Below are positions 55,695 to 62,990 of a stretch of 64,000 bases of DNA, piece by piece. This DNA is from Pseudomonadota bacterium. Its GTDB lineage: Bacteria > Desulfobacterota > WTBG01 > JAPLJA01. The DNA lies in contig JAPLJA010000033.1 in the NCBI GenBank assembly GCA_026388815.1, positions 4,901-68,900 on the forward strand, read 5' to 3'. The position numbers and the translations under genes are program-made. The notes beneath the pieces are model-generated. The model did not search any database. It was not told where the DNA came from and saw nothing but the letters and a program-made list of their open reading frames with translations. Each line of letters opens with the position of its first letter. The first letter of the stretch is position 1.

Positions 55695-57446
55695 ATGAAC
55701 ATTATTGTCTGCCTCCTAACATCACTTCTGCTCAATCTCTATGGTGTGGACTGGGGTCTTCCATCTCCGAAGAAGACTGCGCTCGTTTTTCCCGTGGCCA
55801 GGGAAAATGAAAAATTGTTCGGCATGCTGAAAGAGGGGATGAGCAACAAGCAATCTGAAGCGATGCATTCTTTCAACCGCTATGGGATGGATAATCATAA
55901 AGGTTTGGAGTTTTTTCCGGATCGGTTCCCCCGTGATGAGCGGATGCAGACCTTTCTGCGAAGCTACCTCCTTGCTACATGTCAGGAGGGAGAATATTCT
56001 GTCGTTTCCTCGGTGAGCGGCATGAAAGGATGGCGCCTGAGTCTCAATCCCCGCTTCTTCCGGTACGGCGGTTGTTTCGTCTACACGGTGGGTTTTGTGC
56101 TGAAGGTGACCTCTCTGTTTGAGTGGACCAGCCTCCCCTCTGATCTTTCGTCCTCCCTGAATAACCCTGATGCAGTAAGAAGGGTATACATCGCCGGAAG
56201 GCTGGTGATGGTTATTGCGGTCATGCTGAGCTGCCTTCTCCTCTACCTCCTCGGCAAGAGCCTGTACGGGAGGGAAGCAGGGCTCCTTGCTGCCCTCGCC
56301 TTCGGGGTTTCACCCGGCGTGGTTGCATCCGCCCATACCATGAAGCCGTATATCTTCGGGGTATGTTTTATCCTCCTCTTTCTCATGTGCACCGTGAAGA
56401 TGAAAAACAGTGGCACCCGGTACTCATACGTTCTTGCGGGCATCTTTCTGGGACTCGCTGCCGGCTCGTCTCTCTCTTTCCTCATCTTCTTCTTTCACCT
56501 CTTCATCTGCCACCTGCTCCGCACGCCAAAAGGGGGAATAAGGGCATATGCCGCCTCTCTCAAGGAGGGCAATTTTCTCCTCGCTCTCGGCTCCGTGCTC
56601 CTTGCTCTCCTGCTCACCAACCCCCACTACCTCCTCTCCTGCAGAGAGGTGTTCACCGAGATGAGTTTCCGGATACAGCAGGTATCTTTTTCTCTCTCTT
56701 CAGAGCAGGCGGGTCAGTTTGCATTTTCCTTTTTCTGGATGATCCATGGTATTACTCTTTCACTGATTATTGCCGTCGGCCTGTTCTTTTCGCTGACCAG
56801 AGGCAGGGAGTACTGGTTTCTTCCCCTGCTCCCGGTTCTCTATTTCTTGCTGATGTCTGCAATCGTTGATACGGGGGATCAAACCTACCTGGATTTTTCG
56901 CTCTCTTTAGTCCCCTTTACCGCTCTCCTTGCCGGTATTGGCGCTCAGAACCTCCTCGCATTCCAAAAAAGGTGGATCAGGGTCCTTCTTCTCCTCGTGC
57001 TAACAGTAACTTTTTTCCATTCCCTCCTCTACTCCTATAACTTCAAGCAGGATACATCACAGGACAGCACTTTTTACCGGGCAGGGGCGTGGATTAATCA
57101 CACTGTTCCGCAGGGATCGAGTATCGGACTCCTGCATACCTTTACGCCGACAACCACACCCCCCTTTGATTTCAGAAAATTCCGAATCGCTATCTATGCA
57201 CCCCAGGATCTCTCCTCACGTAAAACACAGCTCTCTCAATATTTTATTTCCGCCAGGCGGATTGATGATCTCCTTGTCCCCCATTATCAGCTCTTACAGT
57301 CCTTTTCCCCTTCATGGCCTCTTTCAACGTTAGGATTCAAAGATCATTTTACCAGGGCTAATCCACCGGTATTCATCTATAAGAGAATTCAGGAGTCAGG
57401 CGCCAGAATTCAGAATCAAAGTGGAGAGCAACTACCGCCATTTTAA
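55695..57446 (+). CDS. GT-C fold polytopic glycosyltransferase (ArnT/PMT_2-like)
   Basis: WGLP, LNPRFFRYG, many TM segments, GLLAA..F..SP, TNP. Confidence 0.72.
   Translation: MNIIVCLLTSLLLNLYGVDWGLPSPKKTALVFPVARENEKLFGMLKEGMSNKQSEAMHSFNRYGMDNHKGLEFFPDRFPRDERMQTFLRSYLLATCQEGEYSVVSSVSGMKGWRLSLNPRFFRYGGCFVYTVGFVLKVTSLFEWTSLPSDLSSSLNNPDAVRRVYIAGRLVMVIAVMLSCLLLYLLGKSLYGREAGLLAALAFGVSPGVVASAHTMKPYIFGVCFILLFLMCTVKMKNSGTRYSYVLAGIFLGLAAGSSLSFLIFFFHLFICHLLRTPKGGIRAYAASLKEGNFLLALGSVLLALLLTNPHYLLSCREVFTEMSFRIQQVSFSLSSEQAGQFAFSFFWMIHGITLSLIIAVGLFFSLTRGREYWFLPLLPVLYFLLMSAIVDTGDQTYLDFSLSLVPFTALLAGIGAQNLLAFQKRWIRVLLLLVLTVTFFHSLLYSYNFKQDTSQDSTFYRAGAWINHTVPQGSSIGLLHTFTPTTTPPFDFRKFRIAIYAPQDLSSRKTQLSQYFISARRIDDLLVPHYQLLQSFSPSWPLSTLGFKDHFTRANPPVFIYKRIQESGARIQNQSGEQLPPF
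57384..57417 (+). repeat. Heptamer array (AGAATTC/AGGAGTC) in the 3' end of a CDS
   Basis: agaattc aggagtc aggcgcc agaattc agaatc; same family as 63889-63922. Confidence 0.75.
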
Positions 57447-57520
57447 ATACAGGGAGGATATTCCGTGAAGAAAATGCTTCCCTTGAATTTTTTAGAGATG
57501 AGTGTTAAATAACAATTAAT

Positions 57521-57593
57521 GAGTTCAGGAGTGGGAGAGTCAGGGAGTTTTTCATAGAGCTCTTGAACTCCGCAACTCGCTAACTCCGTAACT
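57521..57593. repeat. Inverted octamer-period arms (GAGTNNNN x4 ... AACTCNNN x3.5)
   Basis: gagttcag gagtggga gagtcagg gagttttt ... aactccgc aactcgct aactccgt aact. Confidence 0.75.
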
Positions 57594-57605
57594 AATGATT
57601 TATTT

Positions 57606-58334
57606 ATGGATCAGAATACTTTAATACTCATACCCGCCTTTAATGAGGAGAAAAATATTAAACAGGTAATCTCCGGTATAAAGCAACTCTGGCCGGAAAC
57701 ACATATTCTGGTTGTAAATGACGGTTCCAGAGATGATACAGCTTCAGTTGCTCTGAAGATCGGTGGAGAGGTGATCAGTCTTCCTTTTAACTTAGGCTAT
57801 GGTGTGGCCTTACAGACCGGTTATAAGTATGCTATAAACAAGGACTATAAATATCTTATCCAGATGGATGGGGATGGACAGCACGACCCTGCTTATATAG
57901 ATGACCTGCTTAAAGTGGTTACATTGAACGAGGCAGATGTGGCCATTGGTTCAAGATTCTCTTCCGAGGAGAAAAGGGGTACCTACAGGGCGGGATTTTT
58001 CAAGAAGATAGGCATGAAGTTGTTTGGCCTGATTACTTCCATCCTCATCGGTCAGAAGGTTACTGATCCAACTACTGGTTACCAGGCGATGAATAGAAGG
58101 GTCTTAGAATTTTTTGTAAGTGATATCTATCCAGTGGATTTCCCAGATGCAGATGTCCTCATTATGCTCCATCGGGCAGGTTTTAGAATCAGAGAAGTGC
58201 CTGTGGCTATGCACCAGAGCGTAAACAACAGGTCTATGCACCGCGGCCTGGTTCCTCTCTACTATGTGTTCAAGATGTTTCTCTCGATATTTGTGGAACT
58301 GCTGCGCAAGATGCCGAGGAGGGAAGTACAATAA
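57606..58334 (+). CDS. DPM1-like GT2 (polyprenyl-phosphate glycosyltransferase)
   Basis: IPAFNEE, NDGSRDDT, NLGYG.ALQTG, MDGDGQH, GSRF, TDPTTG. Confidence 0.9.
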   Translation: MDQNTLILIPAFNEEKNIKQVISGIKQLWPETHILVVNDGSRDDTASVALKIGGEVISLPFNLGYGVALQTGYKYAINKDYKYLIQMDGDGQHDPAYIDDLLKVVTLNEADVAIGSRFSSEEKRGTYRAGFFKKIGMKLFGLITSILIGQKVTDPTTGYQAMNRRVLEFFVSDIYPVDFPDADVLIMLHRAGFRIREVPVAMHQSVNNRSMHRGLVPLYYVFKMFLSIFVELLRKMPRREVQ

Positions 58335-58350
58335 AAGTCATGCGTCAAAC

Positions 58351-58589
58351 GGTTGGGCAGCTGGTCTCGGTAGACGTAAAGGGTTATGGGTCCACGCAAC
58401 CGATTAACGATAGACGAAACGAGCCTCGCAACCGTATAACGAATAACTTTTTAAAAGGTTGCGCAGCTGGTCTCGGTAGACGTAAAGGGTTATGGGTCCA
58501 CGCAACCGATTAACGATAGACGAAACGAGTCGCGCAACCGTATAACGAATAACTTTTTAGAAGGTTGCGCAGATGGTCTCGGTAGATGT
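58351..58589. repeat. 106-bp tandem repeat, two full copies plus the left arm of a third; each unit is an imperfect hairpin
   Basis: Units start at 58351, 58457 and 58563; ends GGTTGCGC...GCGCAACC. The right arm recurs at 59000-59043. Confidence 0.92.
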
Positions 58590-58598
58590 TGAACATAT

Positions 58599-59048
58599 AT
58601 GGATGAAGTAAAAAAACCAATAAGGAGTTTTCACGATCTGGAGGTATACCAAAGTACCTATGAAGCAATGCTAACAGTGTTTAAAAATATTTTGCCAAAG
58701 CTGCCTAAGGAAGAAGAATATGACCTGAAGGATCAACTCCGCCGTTCAGCAAAAGCGATCCCGCGGTTAATAGCTGAGGGACATTCTAAAAGGCATCAGA
58801 AAAGGGGTTTTCAGAAATACCTCGATGATGCAATGACTGAATCGAACGAAACCATAGTTTCCATAACACAAGCTCGTGACCTGTACGGAAGTTGTGTTGA
58901 TGTCACTTTGTGTAATGAGCTGATTAATATCTATGATAAAACGAGCAGACAGTTGTATAATTTTTCTGTAGCCTGGACTAAGTTCAATGAACGCAAGGAG
59001 TCCACGCAACCGATTAACGATAGACGAAACGAGTCGCGCAACCTTTAA
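58599..59048 (+). CDS. Four-helix-bundle protein (23S rRNA IVP / bAvd-like family)
   Basis: SFHDLEVYQ, LPKEEEYDLKDQLRRSA..IP..IAEG, F..YL..A..E..ET. Confidence 0.9.
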   Translation: MDEVKKPIRSFHDLEVYQSTYEAMLTVFKNILPKLPKEEEYDLKDQLRRSAKAIPRLIAEGHSKRHQKRGFQKYLDDAMTESNETIVSITQARDLYGSCVDVTLCNELINIYDKTSRQLYNFSVAWTKFNERKESTQPINDRRNESRNL

Positions 59049-59073
59049 TTACGATTAACGGGTATTTAGAACG

Positions 59074-59460
59074 ATGCCACTGAGGCAAAAAATCTTCGTC
59101 ATCCTGATCAGCATTGCACTCATGATATTTATTGTTGAGCTTGTGCGCAGGCGGAAGCTCAGGGAGGAATACTCCTGGCTGTGGCTGCTCACCGGTGTCA
59201 TCATCCTGATCCTGGCAAGCTGGCATGACCTGCTCATATACGTAACTCAATTCATCGGGGCAGCCCTCCCTACCTCAACGCTTTTCTTCCTGGGCCTGGT
59301 CTTCCTGTTCCTGATAGCAGTCCAGTTTTCCACGAAGATTTCCAAGCTCACAGATCAGGTCAAGAACCTTGCCCAGGAGAACGCCCTGCTGAAGTCGAGG
59401 ATTGAGAAGATGGAGGGAAACAAGGAGAAAGGGATTGAAGAGCGACAAGAAAAAGATTAG
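59074..59460 (+). CDS. DUF2304 membrane protein
   Basis: IVELVRRRKLREEYSWLW...S.KISKL...VKNLAQE.ALL. Confidence 0.88.
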   Translation: MPLRQKIFVILISIALMIFIVELVRRRKLREEYSWLWLLTGVIILILASWHDLLIYVTQFIGAALPTSTLFFLGLVFLFLIAVQFSTKISKLTDQVKNLAQENALLKSRIEKMEGNKEKGIEERQEKD

Positions 59461-59551
59461 CTTTCAGCTCTCAGCTTAATTTATTAATTAGTAAGGCTGA
59501 TAGCTGATCGCTGATAGCTGACAGCTTTTCAATGGCTGAAAGCTGACAGCT
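59459..59551. repeat. Inverted heptamer arms (TCAGCT.../...AGCTGA) around an AT-rich loop
   Basis: agctttcagctctcagct - taatttattaattag - gctgatagctgatcgctgatagctgacagct ... gctgaaagctgacagct. Confidence 0.85.
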
Positions 59552-59567
59552 ATATCAAGGAGACATA

Positions 59568-60989
59568 ATGGAAAAGAGACTAAGCAAGAAGCAGATGAAG
59601 CATCTGAGGGAGAGCTATCAGTTCAAATCTGACGAGGAACTTGCCAAGGAATGGCAGACGGATAGCGATACGATCCAGAAGGCGTTGAAGACCATGGGCC
59701 TGAGGAGGACGAAGGCTGAGCAAAAGCAGGTTGTCCGTATTGCTGAGGCAGATGCCAGGAGGGAAATAAGGGTCGAGGCAGGCAGGGAATGGCTCTGGAC
59801 TCTTCTCTCTGTTTTCTCGATTATCATCCTCGGTGCCATAGTGTATTCAAATACCCTCAACGCTTCCTGGCATTTCGATGACTCGGTTGTTGTCACAGAG
59901 AACTGGGGATTGCGTGACCTCAGGGGGAATTTTAATACTATTTTTTCAGCAAATCGCAGTGTTGGTTTCTTTACGTTTGCCCTGAATTATTATTTCAATA
60001 AATTGAACGTTACAGGCTACCATGTGGTCAATATTTTCATTCATATTGCAAATGCTTTGTTCGTTTATTCCCTGATCATGCTCACCTTGAAAACGCCAGC
60101 AATGGTTAAGAGCAGGCTTGCAAATCATGCACGTTTTTTAGCCCTCGCATCTGGCCTCATCTTCGTCTCGCACCCCATTCAAACCCAGGCAGTTACGTAC
60201 ATTGCCCAAAGGTTTACCTCACTTGCTACATTCTTTTATCTCCTCTCTCTTCTTCTCTTCGTGAAGGCTCGATTAACTTTCCTTCAGGGAAAGAGCTTTT
60301 TTTCTCCTCTTCACTGCATCTGTTACTGCTTTTCATTATTGTCTGCCTTCCTTGCCATGCATACAAAGGAGATTACCTTCACCTTACCATTTATCATTAT
60401 CCTTTATGAATTGTTCTTCATTGACTCCACCTTGAAATCATGGGGGAAAAGGTTCCTGTATCTTTTACCGTTTATCCTCATGCTTGCAATCATCCCAAGC
60501 ACCGCCTTAAAGCTCTCGGCGGGAGACAAGCCCATCGGAGACATAATCGGTGAGATCCGGGAACAGGTTCAGGAGACGCCCCTTATATCCCGTGGTGATT
60601 ACCTCTTAACCCAGTTCAATGTCATTGTTACGTATATCCGGCTTCTCTTGCTGCCCATGAATCAAAACCTTGATTATGATTATCCTATTGCCCGGAAACT
60701 TTTTCAGTTCCCGACTTTTCTTTCCTTTATGTTCCTCCTTGCCCTGTTCATCGTGGCCATCTATCTCTTTTTTAAAAAGCGCCGCCTCATCTCCTTTGCC
60801 ATACTCTGGTTTTTTATAACCCTCTCAGTTGAATCGAGCATCATCCCCATCCGTGACGTGATCTATGAGCACCGTGTCTATCTGCCCAGCGTGGGATTTG
60901 TAATCTTGATAGCGATTTTTCTCCATGAGTCGGGAGAGAGCTTTCGTCAGAGATTTTTACAGAAACCGCCTGTTGAGAAAAAACAATAG
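59568..60989 (+). CDS. TMTC-like GT-C glycosyltransferase membrane domain (TPRs encoded separately)
   Basis: YSNTL...WHFDD, YH..N..IH..N, HPIQTQAVTYI.QR, KE, YEHRVYLPSVG. Confidence 0.85.
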   Translation: MEKRLSKKQMKHLRESYQFKSDEELAKEWQTDSDTIQKALKTMGLRRTKAEQKQVVRIAEADARREIRVEAGREWLWTLLSVFSIIILGAIVYSNTLNASWHFDDSVVVTENWGLRDLRGNFNTIFSANRSVGFFTFALNYYFNKLNVTGYHVVNIFIHIANALFVYSLIMLTLKTPAMVKSRLANHARFLALASGLIFVSHPIQTQAVTYIAQRFTSLATFFYLLSLLLFVKARLTFLQGKSFFSPLHCICYCFSLLSAFLAMHTKEITFTLPFIIILYELFFIDSTLKSWGKRFLYLLPFILMLAIIPSTALKLSAGDKPIGDIIGEIREQVQETPLISRGDYLLTQFNVIVTYIRLLLLPMNQNLDYDYPIARKLFQFPTFLSFMFLLALFIVAIYLFFKKRRLISFAILWFFITLSVESSIIPIRDVIYEHRVYLPSVGFVILIAIFLHESGESFRQRFLQKPPVEKKQ

Positions 60990-61877: not shown

Positions 61878-62774
61878 TTGAATCGCATGATGCGCCTTTT
61901 TTTCTTATCTCTCGTTATTCTCTCCTACGTAGTGGGAACTGCTTCGCGCAATCGTGTCTGGAGCAATGATGTAACCCTCTGGAATGACTGTATTGAAAAG
62001 AACAAGGCCAAGGCCAGATACAAGGCCAGACCCTATCGTATTTATGCAGACAGCCTGAAAAGGGAAAATAATTTTGATAATGCAATTAAATTTTATCGGG
62101 AGGCTATGAAGTTCGATCCAAAGTCACCTTTGACCTACAACAATTTAGGAGTGATATTAGAAACACAAGGAAGTCTAACTCAAGCCGAATTGTTGTACCG
62201 GCAGGCGCTGACTATCTGGCCGTATTACCCAGATGCGCTCAACAATCTGGGTAACATCTTCATGAAACGGGGTGTGCTTGACCAGGCCATAGACTATTTC
62301 ACCCTGGCGGTAAAGCTAAAGCAGGATCCGGATTACTGCTACAACCTCGGCAGTGCTTACCAGCGCAAGGAGCAGTGGGACAAGGCCATAATCTGGATTC
62401 AAGAGGCTCTGAAGCTAAAGGATGACCTGGAGTATGCCCACAACAACCTCGGGGTCAGCTACTGGAGGAAGGGACTCTACGAGCAGGCACTGGCAGAATT
62501 TAGAAGGGCTCTGGAGATCAAACCTGATTTTTTCGATGCCCATGCCAATCTGGGGCTCCTCTACTACAGCGGGTATAAGGATAATACTCAGGCACTCTTT
62601 CACCTTACCCGTGCCCTAACCATTGCACCCGCTCATCCCCAGGCTGGAATGATCAAGGGGGTGGTGGAAGAAATACAGAGGAAGGGTCAAAGGGTAGCTT
62701 TCAGCTATCAGCGGGATAAAAAAAGCGGTCAGCGGTCAGCTTTCAGCCTCACGATTGAGAAAGATACAGTATGA
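61878..62774 (+). CDS. TM + TPR module 2 (TMTC C-terminal half)
   Basis: TM, SRNRVWSNDVTLWND, TPRs (YNNLG, ALNNLG, AHNNLG); the tail is repeat-derived. Confidence 0.85.
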   Translation: MNRMMRLFFLSLVILSYVVGTASRNRVWSNDVTLWNDCIEKNKAKARYKARPYRIYADSLKRENNFDNAIKFYREAMKFDPKSPLTYNNLGVILETQGSLTQAELLYRQALTIWPYYPDALNNLGNIFMKRGVLDQAIDYFTLAVKLKQDPDYCYNLGSAYQRKEQWDKAIIWIQEALKLKDDLEYAHNNLGVSYWRKGLYEQALAEFRRALEIKPDFFDAHANLGLLYYSGYKDNTQALFHLTRALTIAPAHPQAGMIKGVVEEIQRKGQRVAFSYQRDKKSGQRSAFSLTIEKDTV

Positions 62775-62990
62775 AGGATTTTAAAAAGTTAAGCGTGTGG
62801 CATAAAAGCCACCAATTGACATTGGCTGTTTATAATTAAAGCTGAGAGCTGAATGCTGAAAGCTAAACGCTATTTAATAATTAAGCTGAGAGCTGAAAGC
62901 TGACCGCTGACAGCTATTAACCTGAGAGCTGAGCACTTACAGCTTAATCATAATTAAAGCTGAAAGCTGACCGCTGAAAGCTGATAGCTA
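62696..62990. repeat. Inverted heptamer arms (TCAGC left, GCTGA right) enclosing a four-helix-bundle stump
   Basis: Left arms at 62696-62712 and 62724-62747; four right-arm blocks at 62840-62990 separated by AT-rich spacers. Confidence 0.88.
62771..62839 (+). pseudogene. Truncated four-helix-bundle gene
   Basis: Translates to MKDFKKLSVWHKSHQLTLAVYN-stop, the typical N-terminus of this family. Confidence 0.8.

Follow-up and report, generated by a model that had tools for sequence, protein, structure and literature searches.

How does the gene for a small four-helix-bundle protein come to sit inside a hairpin, beside two copies of the same hairpin that hold no gene, at the junction between two protein genes of a bacterial operon? 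The locus that raises this question lies at 58347-59043 of a 64,000-nucleotide (nt) stretch, called the window here, of contig JAPLJA010000033.1 of a Pseudomonadota bacterium (GCA_026388815.1), between a gene for a family 2 glycosyltransferase (GT2) and a gene for a DUF2304 membrane protein. The best explanation is that these positions hold a three-unit array of one hairpin element, whose third unit is a complete cassette like the intervening sequences (IVSs) of 23S ribosomal RNA (rRNA) and whose first two units are arms without the gene. Beyond this, we think it probable that the IVS-like cassette has spread horizontally, is expressed by read-through and forms an array that is reshuffled by recombination between arms.

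An earlier note on this DNA, made from the letters alone, had described two gene-less 106-nt units followed by a third in which the gene occupies an interval of about 410 nt, and a repeat search together with the tandem-repeat program TRF (period 106, score 438) bore this out. The two gene-less units (E1 and E2) are 96% identical over their 106 nt, with 3 differences in the 83 positions of the hairpin; the cores of E1 are GGTTGGGC on the left and, on the right, a sequence that terminates in CGCAACC. Both arms are found three times (Table 1). Between the end of the third left arm (58589) and the start of the third right arm (59000) there are 410 nt, and the filled unit (F) measures 481 nt as a whole (58563-59043). 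Its right arm is 100% identical over 44 nt to that of the second copy and codes, as the note had it, for the C-terminus of the protein, that is, its last ~16 residues (~134-149). A 404-nt contig from sequencing run X1 spans 58405-58801 with 1 difference, which supports the contiguity of E2 and the filled unit.

Arms and gene across phyla

Species-representative genomes yielded 111 stretches with a relative of this gene, the best 80 of which were analysed and, with the window, make up 81 loci. The labels of the metagenome-assembled genomes (MAGs) to which they belong include Deltaproteobacteria/Desulfobacterales, Chloroflexota, Planctomycetota, Omnitrophota, Cloacimonadota, Bacteroidales, Saccharibacteria, Margulisiibacteriota, Zixibacteria, WOR-3 and one Thermoplasmata archaeon, more than 10 phyla overall, and the copies from other phyla are 70-81% identical. 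In 40 same-class relatives, the subfamily was found in none at E <= 1e-30. This patchy distribution points to horizontal spread, and the comparison shows a cassette, consisting of the gene and its cognate arms, that has been passed among many phyla. Among viral contigs, 110 pattern matches gave 0 confirmed relatives, and a phage vector was not found with that query.

The left core, GGTTGCGCnnCTCG, lies 36-39 nt 5′ of the ATG and the right core, CGAGnnGCGCAACC, ~430 nt 3′ of it. Both are present with at most 3 mismatches at 50 of the 81 loci, the window having them at -36 and +431. On this comparison the arms belong to this protein subfamily, and the expectation that they would be linked to four-helix-bundle genes elsewhere holds in so far as cognate cores surround subfamily homologues in many phyla. 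It fails inside this genome, where none of the 10 other TIGR02436 hits is linked to these arms: eight come with different arms of their own in which 7-nt tandem units are clear, a contig end truncates another, and the last is a weak hit (C119:3999-4571, E 3.9e-6) to a 201-aa protein, at which no arms were seen.

In what form are the arms conserved? Past residue ~133 the homologues carry tails of the type TQPxxDxRNE... or RNxxTKDETSSATE, or none at all (133-aa forms), and these tails are one DNA sequence in different reading frames. Of 19 loci in the exact register of the window, 10, 6 and 2 read into the right arm, with its core in each of the three frames, and the remaining one stops before the core. 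Compared with the window, 18 loci have an identity of 0.78 in the final 30 nt of the right arm, 0.64 in the opening 30 nt of the left arm and 0.48 at third codon positions. Since the reading frame of the right arm varies, and some homologues leave it untranslated, it is conserved as nucleic acid.

Inside its own genome, BLAST of the arms and an exact search for GGTTGCGC...GCGCAACC recovered full arms at this locus only, plus C269, and the arm pattern at 1 mismatch did no better than a control (166 versus 149). A profile search brought out four diverged gene-less copies, C269 (E 5.9e-6), C257 (9.2e-4), C10 (6.1e-3) and C310 (0.036), each in a short gap between open reading frames (ORFs). One possible explanation for the confinement of full arms to one place, and for the perfect head-to-tail register of the units at period 106, is that the block is an immobile local repeat, in which hairpin and gene were tandemly duplicated by slippage and the mobile look is superficial. 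This explanation is largely refuted and in our judgement barely credible, since the same arms surround orthologues at unrelated sites in many phyla, the subfamily was not found in the 40 same-class relatives searched, the junction is pristine in the relative L095 (see below) and in most others, and diverged gene-less copies occur at four other junctions of the genome.

The 149-aa ORF matches PF05635 (E 2.5e-18, 66.7 bits, cut-off 33.8) and TIGR02436 (E 1.6e-14, 54.1 bits, cut-off 24); PF05635 is the sole Pfam family matched, so that the protein does not qualify as an HUH/Tyr (IS200/IS605-like) transposase. The AlphaFold model (mean pLDDT 80.4) has helices at 13-30, 37-61, 71-95 and 102-136 and a low-confidence tail. 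Its top Foldseek matches are five chains of 2gsc, the pentameric Xcc0516 (TM 0.72-0.75 by target, probability 1.00, E 0.024-0.085), and the sequence itself matches 2gsc_A with E 3.2e-4; lower in rank come 2rld and, at rank 50, chain 8ub7_B (TM 0.69 normalised by target), which is the Avd protein of a diversity-generating retroelement (DGR) ribonucleoprotein. The predicted fold is therefore a four-helix bundle like that of Xcc0516 (2GSC). Homologues are plentiful: of 2722 candidates, 2708 match at E <= 1e-5, and the top 120 are 69-98% identical. The ratio dN/dS is 0.03-0.08 against five homologues from other phyla with unsaturated synonymous sites and 0.17 against the relative L088, values that show a protein held under strong purifying selection. 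We know of no function for the PF05635 family since its discovery in rRNA intervening sequences.

The GT2/DUF2304 junction and the origin of the gene-less units

The earlier note had pictured a hairpin element whose filled and empty forms stand side by side, and had proposed relatives as the place to look for an empty site; the junction itself supports a discrete insertion that comes with and without the gene. A GT2 match at E <= 1e-40 was present in 5 of the 40 same-class relatives, and in two of these (G009 and G026) 5 nt separate the GT2 stop codon from the ATG of DUF2304. Among metagenome contigs, 80 loci with DUF2304 were collected, 68 of them with a same-strand GT2 gene upstream, and there the distance from the end of the GT2 match to the start of DUF2304 is at most 60 nt in 51, 61-140 nt in 1 and more than 140 nt in 16.

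The closest of these loci form an allelic series. In L095, whose DUF2304 is 86% identical to that of the window, the junction measures 7 nt and has no hairpin. L090 (95%) holds two gene-less units (E-E, 251 nt) and L094 (89%) a short-loop unit, E′, followed by E (236 nt), both without the gene. L088 (95%) has the order E-F-E in 752 nt, with a gene 98% identical to that of the window in protein and 99% in DNA, L089 (95%) has F-E on a contig that begins inside the gene, and the window has E-E-F in a GT2-DUF2304 gap of 740 nt. A 253-nt contig (X2) reads from GT2 into one short-loop gene-less unit and then into the start of a filled unit. The array differs among close relatives in the number of units and in the unit that holds the gene, which is unit 2 of 3 in L088 and unit 3 of 3 in the window, and the comparison with the empty junctions shows an array that was inserted between GT2 and DUF2304 in this lineage. 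The GT2 protein is only 75-76% identical to those of L088, L090 and L094 although the DUF2304 proteins are 89-95% identical, and the last ~60 nt of the GT2 gene are nearly identical; the contrast suggests a recombination boundary inside or near GT2.

Could the hairpins instead serve the host operon, as mRNA stabilisers, attenuators or breakers of translation coupling, with the gene as a passenger? Such a role would suit the fact that every examined junction of the operon has hairpins (57521-57586, the block itself and 59458-59553) and that unrelated hairpin inserts are found at the same GT2/DUF2304 junction in other lineages. However, 51 of the 68 loci with GT2 upstream have no insert, which means that the operon does not need one, the 57400-59700 region has 1 terminator-like site against 1.8 expected, which lies outside the block, and it is the gene subfamily, rather than the operon, with which the arms are associated. 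We regard a host regulatory role as very unlikely.

The inserts of other lineages deserve a description of their own. L103, L113, L120, L133, L135, L162 and others, which belong to unrelated lineages, carry different inserts of 145-365 nt at this junction; some are heptamer arrays (GAGTTTGTTGAGTTT...), and in others nested palindromes are enclosed by long inverted arms (CACCGCAGAGAGCGCAGAG... pairing with ...CTCTGCGCTCTCTGCGGTG).

What are the gene-less units made of? Over 83 positions, the units of the window, L088, L089 and L090 show 0-8 differences, and all have ...GTA(A/G)AGGGTTATGG fused directly to GTCCACGCAACC... The left part resembles the stretch that leads up to the ATG, and the ATG itself, in filled cassettes from other phyla (...CGTAGAGCGGTTATGGAT, L008 and L011), and the right part begins at the start of the right arm. 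Because the left half ends with this pre-ATG sequence and ATGG, gene-less units look like cassettes minus codons 2-133, and we infer that a gene-less unit is a cassette that has lost these codons. The opposite order of events, in which the gene entered the loop of a pre-existing third hairpin, is probably wrong, given that gene-less units keep the pre-ATG sequence and ATGG of filled cassettes. The filled units of the window and L088 have another inner-left sequence, common to both (GTTGAACATATATGG), which makes filled and gene-less units two coexisting lineages of one array. In the window, E2 is F-like at its outer ends and E-like in the middle, a mosaic that gene conversion or unequal crossing-over would give. 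An in-frame mini-ORF in the gene-less units, made of the ATG and the C-terminal tail, was considered and rejected, because the frame of the ATG differs from that of the tail.

Gene-less units with a core spacing of 68-75 nt lie within 1.5 kb of the gene at 6 of the 80 loci (L007, L020, L028, L043, L044 and L085), and L040 has a shorter unit (43 nt) just 5′ of the gene. In the Cloacimonadota loci L043 and L044 the layout is permuted, the gene standing between two complete gene-less hairpins and not inside one, and L054, from a Cloacimonadota MAG, has left cores on both sides of the gene. L040, L043, L044 and L054 also have a purine-rich stretch (AAAGGAA) just before the ATG.

The features of the locus are collected in Table 1. 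The placement of the 739-nt block between GT2 and DUF2304 was confirmed by the profile matches on either side. The first hairpin core begins 16 nt after the GT2 stop codon, and the top NCBIfam match of GT2 is of the polyprenyl-phospho-sugar synthase type, with a score far under the cut-off.

Table 1. Features of the hairpin array and its two neighbours (positions in the window)
Feature	Positions	Strand	Remarks
GT2 glycosyltransferase gene, 242 aa	57606..58334	+	upstream neighbour; PF00535, E 2e-26
Gene-less unit E1	58347..58452	+	hairpin 58351-58433 and 23-nt spacer
Gene-less unit E2	58453..58558	+	hairpin 58457-58539 and 23-nt spacer
Filled unit F, left arm	58563..58598	+	core 36 nt 5′ of ATG, the canonical subfamily distance
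Four-helix-bundle gene, 149 aa, PF05635/TIGR02436	58599..59048	+	ORF and profile matches
Filled unit F, right arm	59000..59043	+	core 431 nt 3′ of ATG, the canonical distance
Spacer, 30 nt, from block to DUF2304 start codon	59044..59073	+	unlike the spacers of L088, L090 and L094
DUF2304 membrane-protein gene, 128 aa	59074..59460	+	downstream neighbour; PF10066, E 9e-27
Left arm, 27 nt, three copies	starts 58351, 58457, 58563		identity 100, 96 and 89%
Right arm, 44 nt, three copies	58390-58433, 58496-58539, 59000-59043		identity 95, 100 and 100%

Pairing, orientation and a proposed mechanism

Do the arms pair? Over 14 core positions, arms of the same locus form 11.3 Watson-Crick pairs and arms of different loci 10.5 (45 distinct arm pairs), and the pairing total was reached by 0 of 5000 shuffles, in a test that ignores kinship among loci. 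Compensatory types are GGTTACGC/GCGTAACC, GGTTGCGT/ACGCAACC, GGTTGCGA/TCGCAACC and GGTTACGT/ACGTAACC, and the outer 8-bp helix has three positions with double compensatory types. These exchanges show a terminal stem maintained by compensatory changes. In the window, terminal inverted repeats form a stem that encloses the ORF; the inverted repeat (I2) has 21 nt, 76% complementary, a weaker stem than the 28-bp one of Coxiella. E1 folds with ~16 bulged pairs at -30.7 kcal/mol (z -2.0, 4 of 200 shuffles as good) and E2 with ~16 bulged pairs at -32.9 kcal/mol (z -2.9, 2 of 200). The minimum-energy fold of 58555-59060 (506 nt) pairs both arms. The hairpin folding expected from the letters therefore stands for the gene-less units and for the pairing of the arms around the gene, and falls short for the filled stretch as a whole, which folds no better than shuffles. 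The arms that bracket the gene in inverted orientation also have a 7-nt periodicity: shifted against itself by 7 nt, the right arm has an identity of 0.43, whereas every other lag between 1 and 15 gives 0.11-0.36, and in both consensus arms the CG steps, counted inward from the outer end, follow one another at 6-7-5-7-7 nt.

The cassette is strongly oriented. At 57 loci both neighbours could be called, and the gene is co-oriented with both in 47, against both in 2 and with one in 8; a binomial test of 2 of 49 gives 4e-12, although the loci are not independent. The 57400-59700 region has 3 promoter-like sites against 3.3 expected, no excess, and the only two in the block fall within the ORF of the four-helix-bundle protein, their first hexamers being at 58692 and 58933. 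Co-orientation with the host operon fits the idea of an mRNA intervening sequence and, together with the lack of an excess of promoters and terminators, dependence on read-through with arms that act in the transcript. The reading of the block as a hairpin element or mRNA intervening sequence is thus supported in part, by the insertion, the horizontal spread and the co-orientation (47 of 57), and has to be amended in that the gene was probably not a late entrant.

In the mechanism that we propose, the gene would have no promoter of its own and would be transcribed by read-through from the host operon. The arms would pair in the transcript and host RNase III may cut there, as it does in rRNA intervening sequences; since the cassette could in this way be cut out of the polycistronic transcript, its insertion between cistrons would be tolerable. 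Gene-less units would be born by the loss of codons 2-133 from a filled unit, and homologous recombination between near-identical arms would add or remove units and turn filled ones into empty ones or the reverse. For example, if the right arms of E2 and F (R2 and R3), which are identical, recombined, the gene would be deleted and the result would be exactly the kind of allele seen in a 484-nt contig of X1, where the loop side of a gene-less unit is joined directly to the right arm, the spacer of the window genome and DUF2304 (10 differences in 197 nt), the joint having just 28 nt on its left side, below the caution line of 30. Finally, the pentamer-type protein may act on its own arms, a step proposed because the arms and the subfamily travel together and because of the homology with Avd.

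Several observations weigh against this reading, the short left side of the X1 joint and the kinship ignored by the shuffle test among them. The gene-less hairpins beat their shuffles just moderately (z -2.0 to -2.9), and the filled stretch, taken over all its 506 nt, has a stability within the ordinary range (z -1.27, matched by 14 of 100 shuffles). Inside the outer 8+5 pairs the arms pair mostly at CG steps, and the two free core positions show no covariation, the observed value being reached by 3557 of 5000 shuffles. G-T cells barely outnumber A-C cells (29 versus 20 of 630), so that there is no strand signal and no sign of whether sense RNA or DNA folds. The origin of gene-less units by ORF deletion rests on a resemblance of 16 nt. 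No target-site duplication, which a miniature inverted-repeat transposable element (MITE) would have besides its terminal inverted repeats, was seen at the block ends in comparison with the pristine L095 junction, the flanks having diverged, and the 20 listed sequencing runs that match the stretch, with shares of 0.25-0.48, are all DNA metagenomes.

The lack of a strand signal, and the finding that the two strands of each gene-less unit fold with similar stability, would agree with a transposase-free element that works at the DNA level, its arms extruding as hairpins or cruciforms and its gene-less hairpins serving as landing pads, with the gene moving by recombination, by conversion or through a circle cut out between direct copies of an arm and the protein marking or protecting the arms. 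The same model would accommodate the gene being in unit 2 of 3 in L088 and unit 3 of 3 in the window with E-only alleles besides, the mosaic E2, which is what gene conversion gives, and the unusual layouts of L043 and L044, of L040 with its short upstream unit and of L054 with left cores on both sides. However, it does not predict co-orientation with host genes (47 versus 2), plain homologous recombination between repeats of 44-106 nt already accounts for the array variants with no need for a function encoded by the element, and no circle or excision joint was present in the contigs examined. We consider this DNA-level model unlikely and retain the read-through cassette reshuffled through its arms as the probable one.

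Relation to known elements and to heptamer repeats

Which known kind of element is closest? It is the rRNA IVS, and the window holds an element of this type that sits at an operon junction and is accompanied by gene-less copies in tandem. The IVS of Coxiella burnetii 23S rRNA (helix 45), as described by Warrier et al. 2016 (PMC4990558), has 428-444 nt, a 28-bp terminal stem and tandem heptamers before the ATG of S23p, and is excised by RNase III. As in the ORF-bearing IVSs of Coxiella and Leptospira, for which this is the reported layout, an ORF of the PF05635/S23p family lies in the loop of a stem of terminal inverted repeats. The size is similar (428-444 nt there and 481 nt here), both have 7-nt periodic repeats by the start codon without a strong ribosome-binding site (PMC4990558), and the sporadic, horizontally scattered distribution reported for 23S rRNA IVSs is found here too. 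RNase III excision is demonstrated for the Coxiella IVS, whereas for the window element it is a presumption, and the Coxiella ORF is described as decaying (PMC4990558), whereas the window protein is under strong purifying selection. Unlike rRNA IVSs, the window element stands between two protein genes of an operon, has tandem and dispersed gene-less copies, and has a right arm into which the 3′ end of the ORF extends. The 57400-59700 region gave no rRNA match, so a location in 23S rRNA, at helix 25 or 45, does not apply, and no Rfam family reached its gathering score there, the top one being P26 at 59459-59527 (25 bits, cut-off 36), on a neighbouring hairpin.

Two other systems invite comparison. 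Repetitive extragenic palindromic (REP) sequences and REPINs are short palindromes dispersed in intergenic gaps, with a cognate protein gene, RAYT, that is flanked by the same palindromes and with more gene-less copies than gene copies, and all three traits recur here. RAYT is a transposase of the HUH/Tyr type, whose catalytic motifs are known, whereas the window encodes a four-helix-bundle protein without a known catalytic motif; also unlike REPs and REPINs, the arms are 7-nt periodic, CG-phased and common to many phyla along with the gene. Avd, for its part, binds nucleic acid. The window protein is likewise small, basic and helical with a proposed nucleic-acid partner, and its modelled fold is homologous (8ub7_B, TM 0.69). 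In contrast to Avd, the proposed partner is the gene's own flanking arms, and the locus has no reverse transcriptase, template repeat or variable repeat as a DGR would. Avd is described as an accessory protein in DGR retrohoming, with 4DWL (BPP-1 Avd) and 2GSC named as homologous structures (PMC10053308).

How does the cassette relate to the many heptamer repeats of this genome? At one threshold, 348 tandem arrays (335 distinct) have period 7, whereas periods 6, 8 and 9 account for 10, 105 and 12. A strict test gave 23 inverted array pairs; 18 are at most 120 nt apart, and all 4 with a spacing above 300 nt enclose a TIGR02436 hit. Since the genome has only 11 such hits, most period-7 arrays are not beside such a gene. 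Unlike these arrays, the arms of the window cassette are weakly periodic (0.43 at lag 7). Abundant intergenic arrays of 7-nt period have been reported in Beggiatoaceae (TAACTGA; PMC4679880) and in Geobacter metallireducens (PMC2700814), although these reports, as far as their accounts of the heptanucleotide repeats go, do not tie them to four-helix-bundle genes or to gene-enclosing hairpins. A preprint on rRNA insertions of the candidate phyla radiation (CPR), in its account of the domain, notes it solely within rRNA insertions. In the literature searched, which did not extend to supplements such as the Geobacter repeat tables, an arm-enclosed gene of the PF05635 family outside rRNA was not described.

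Other hairpins lie close by. In the gap just 5′ of GT2, 57521-57586 is a gene-less hairpin of 7-8-nt units (GAGTTCAGGAGT... pairing with ...AACTCCGTAACT) that folds at -27.3 kcal/mol (z -3.06, 0 of 200 shuffles as good). Right after DUF2304, at 59458-59553, there are two adjacent heptamer hairpins of the AGCTGAN type (-43.6 kcal/mol, z -4.33). Units of this type also flank another four-helix-bundle gene of the same contig (C267:70342-70701), just past the end of the window, and similar arrays are found at 62724-62989.

A wider proposal, possible but doubtful, is that such cassettes form a class of mobile elements without a transposase. The arms, periodic and CG-phased, would serve both as portable homology and as a binding lattice for the element's own pentameric protein, RNase III would render insertions between cistrons or in rRNA harmless, and the gene would hop between gene-less landing pads by recombination or conversion of the arms. 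If true, this would explain why one junction is found with no array, with E-E, with E-F-E and with E-E-F in close relatives, and why some genomes have hundreds of 7-nt arrays but about ten such genes.

The PF05635 family has thousands of members, 2708 matches at E <= 1e-5 being counted for one subfamily alone. The locus offers a natural experiment on this family, since close relatives present one junction in five states or more and keep the gene in different hairpin units. Its value lies also in arms that are demonstrably selected as nucleic acid, since different lineages read them in different frames, and in a cassette that is strongly oriented with its host operon. It links the PF05635 family to the excess of heptanucleotide repeats that has long been noted in bacterial genomes.

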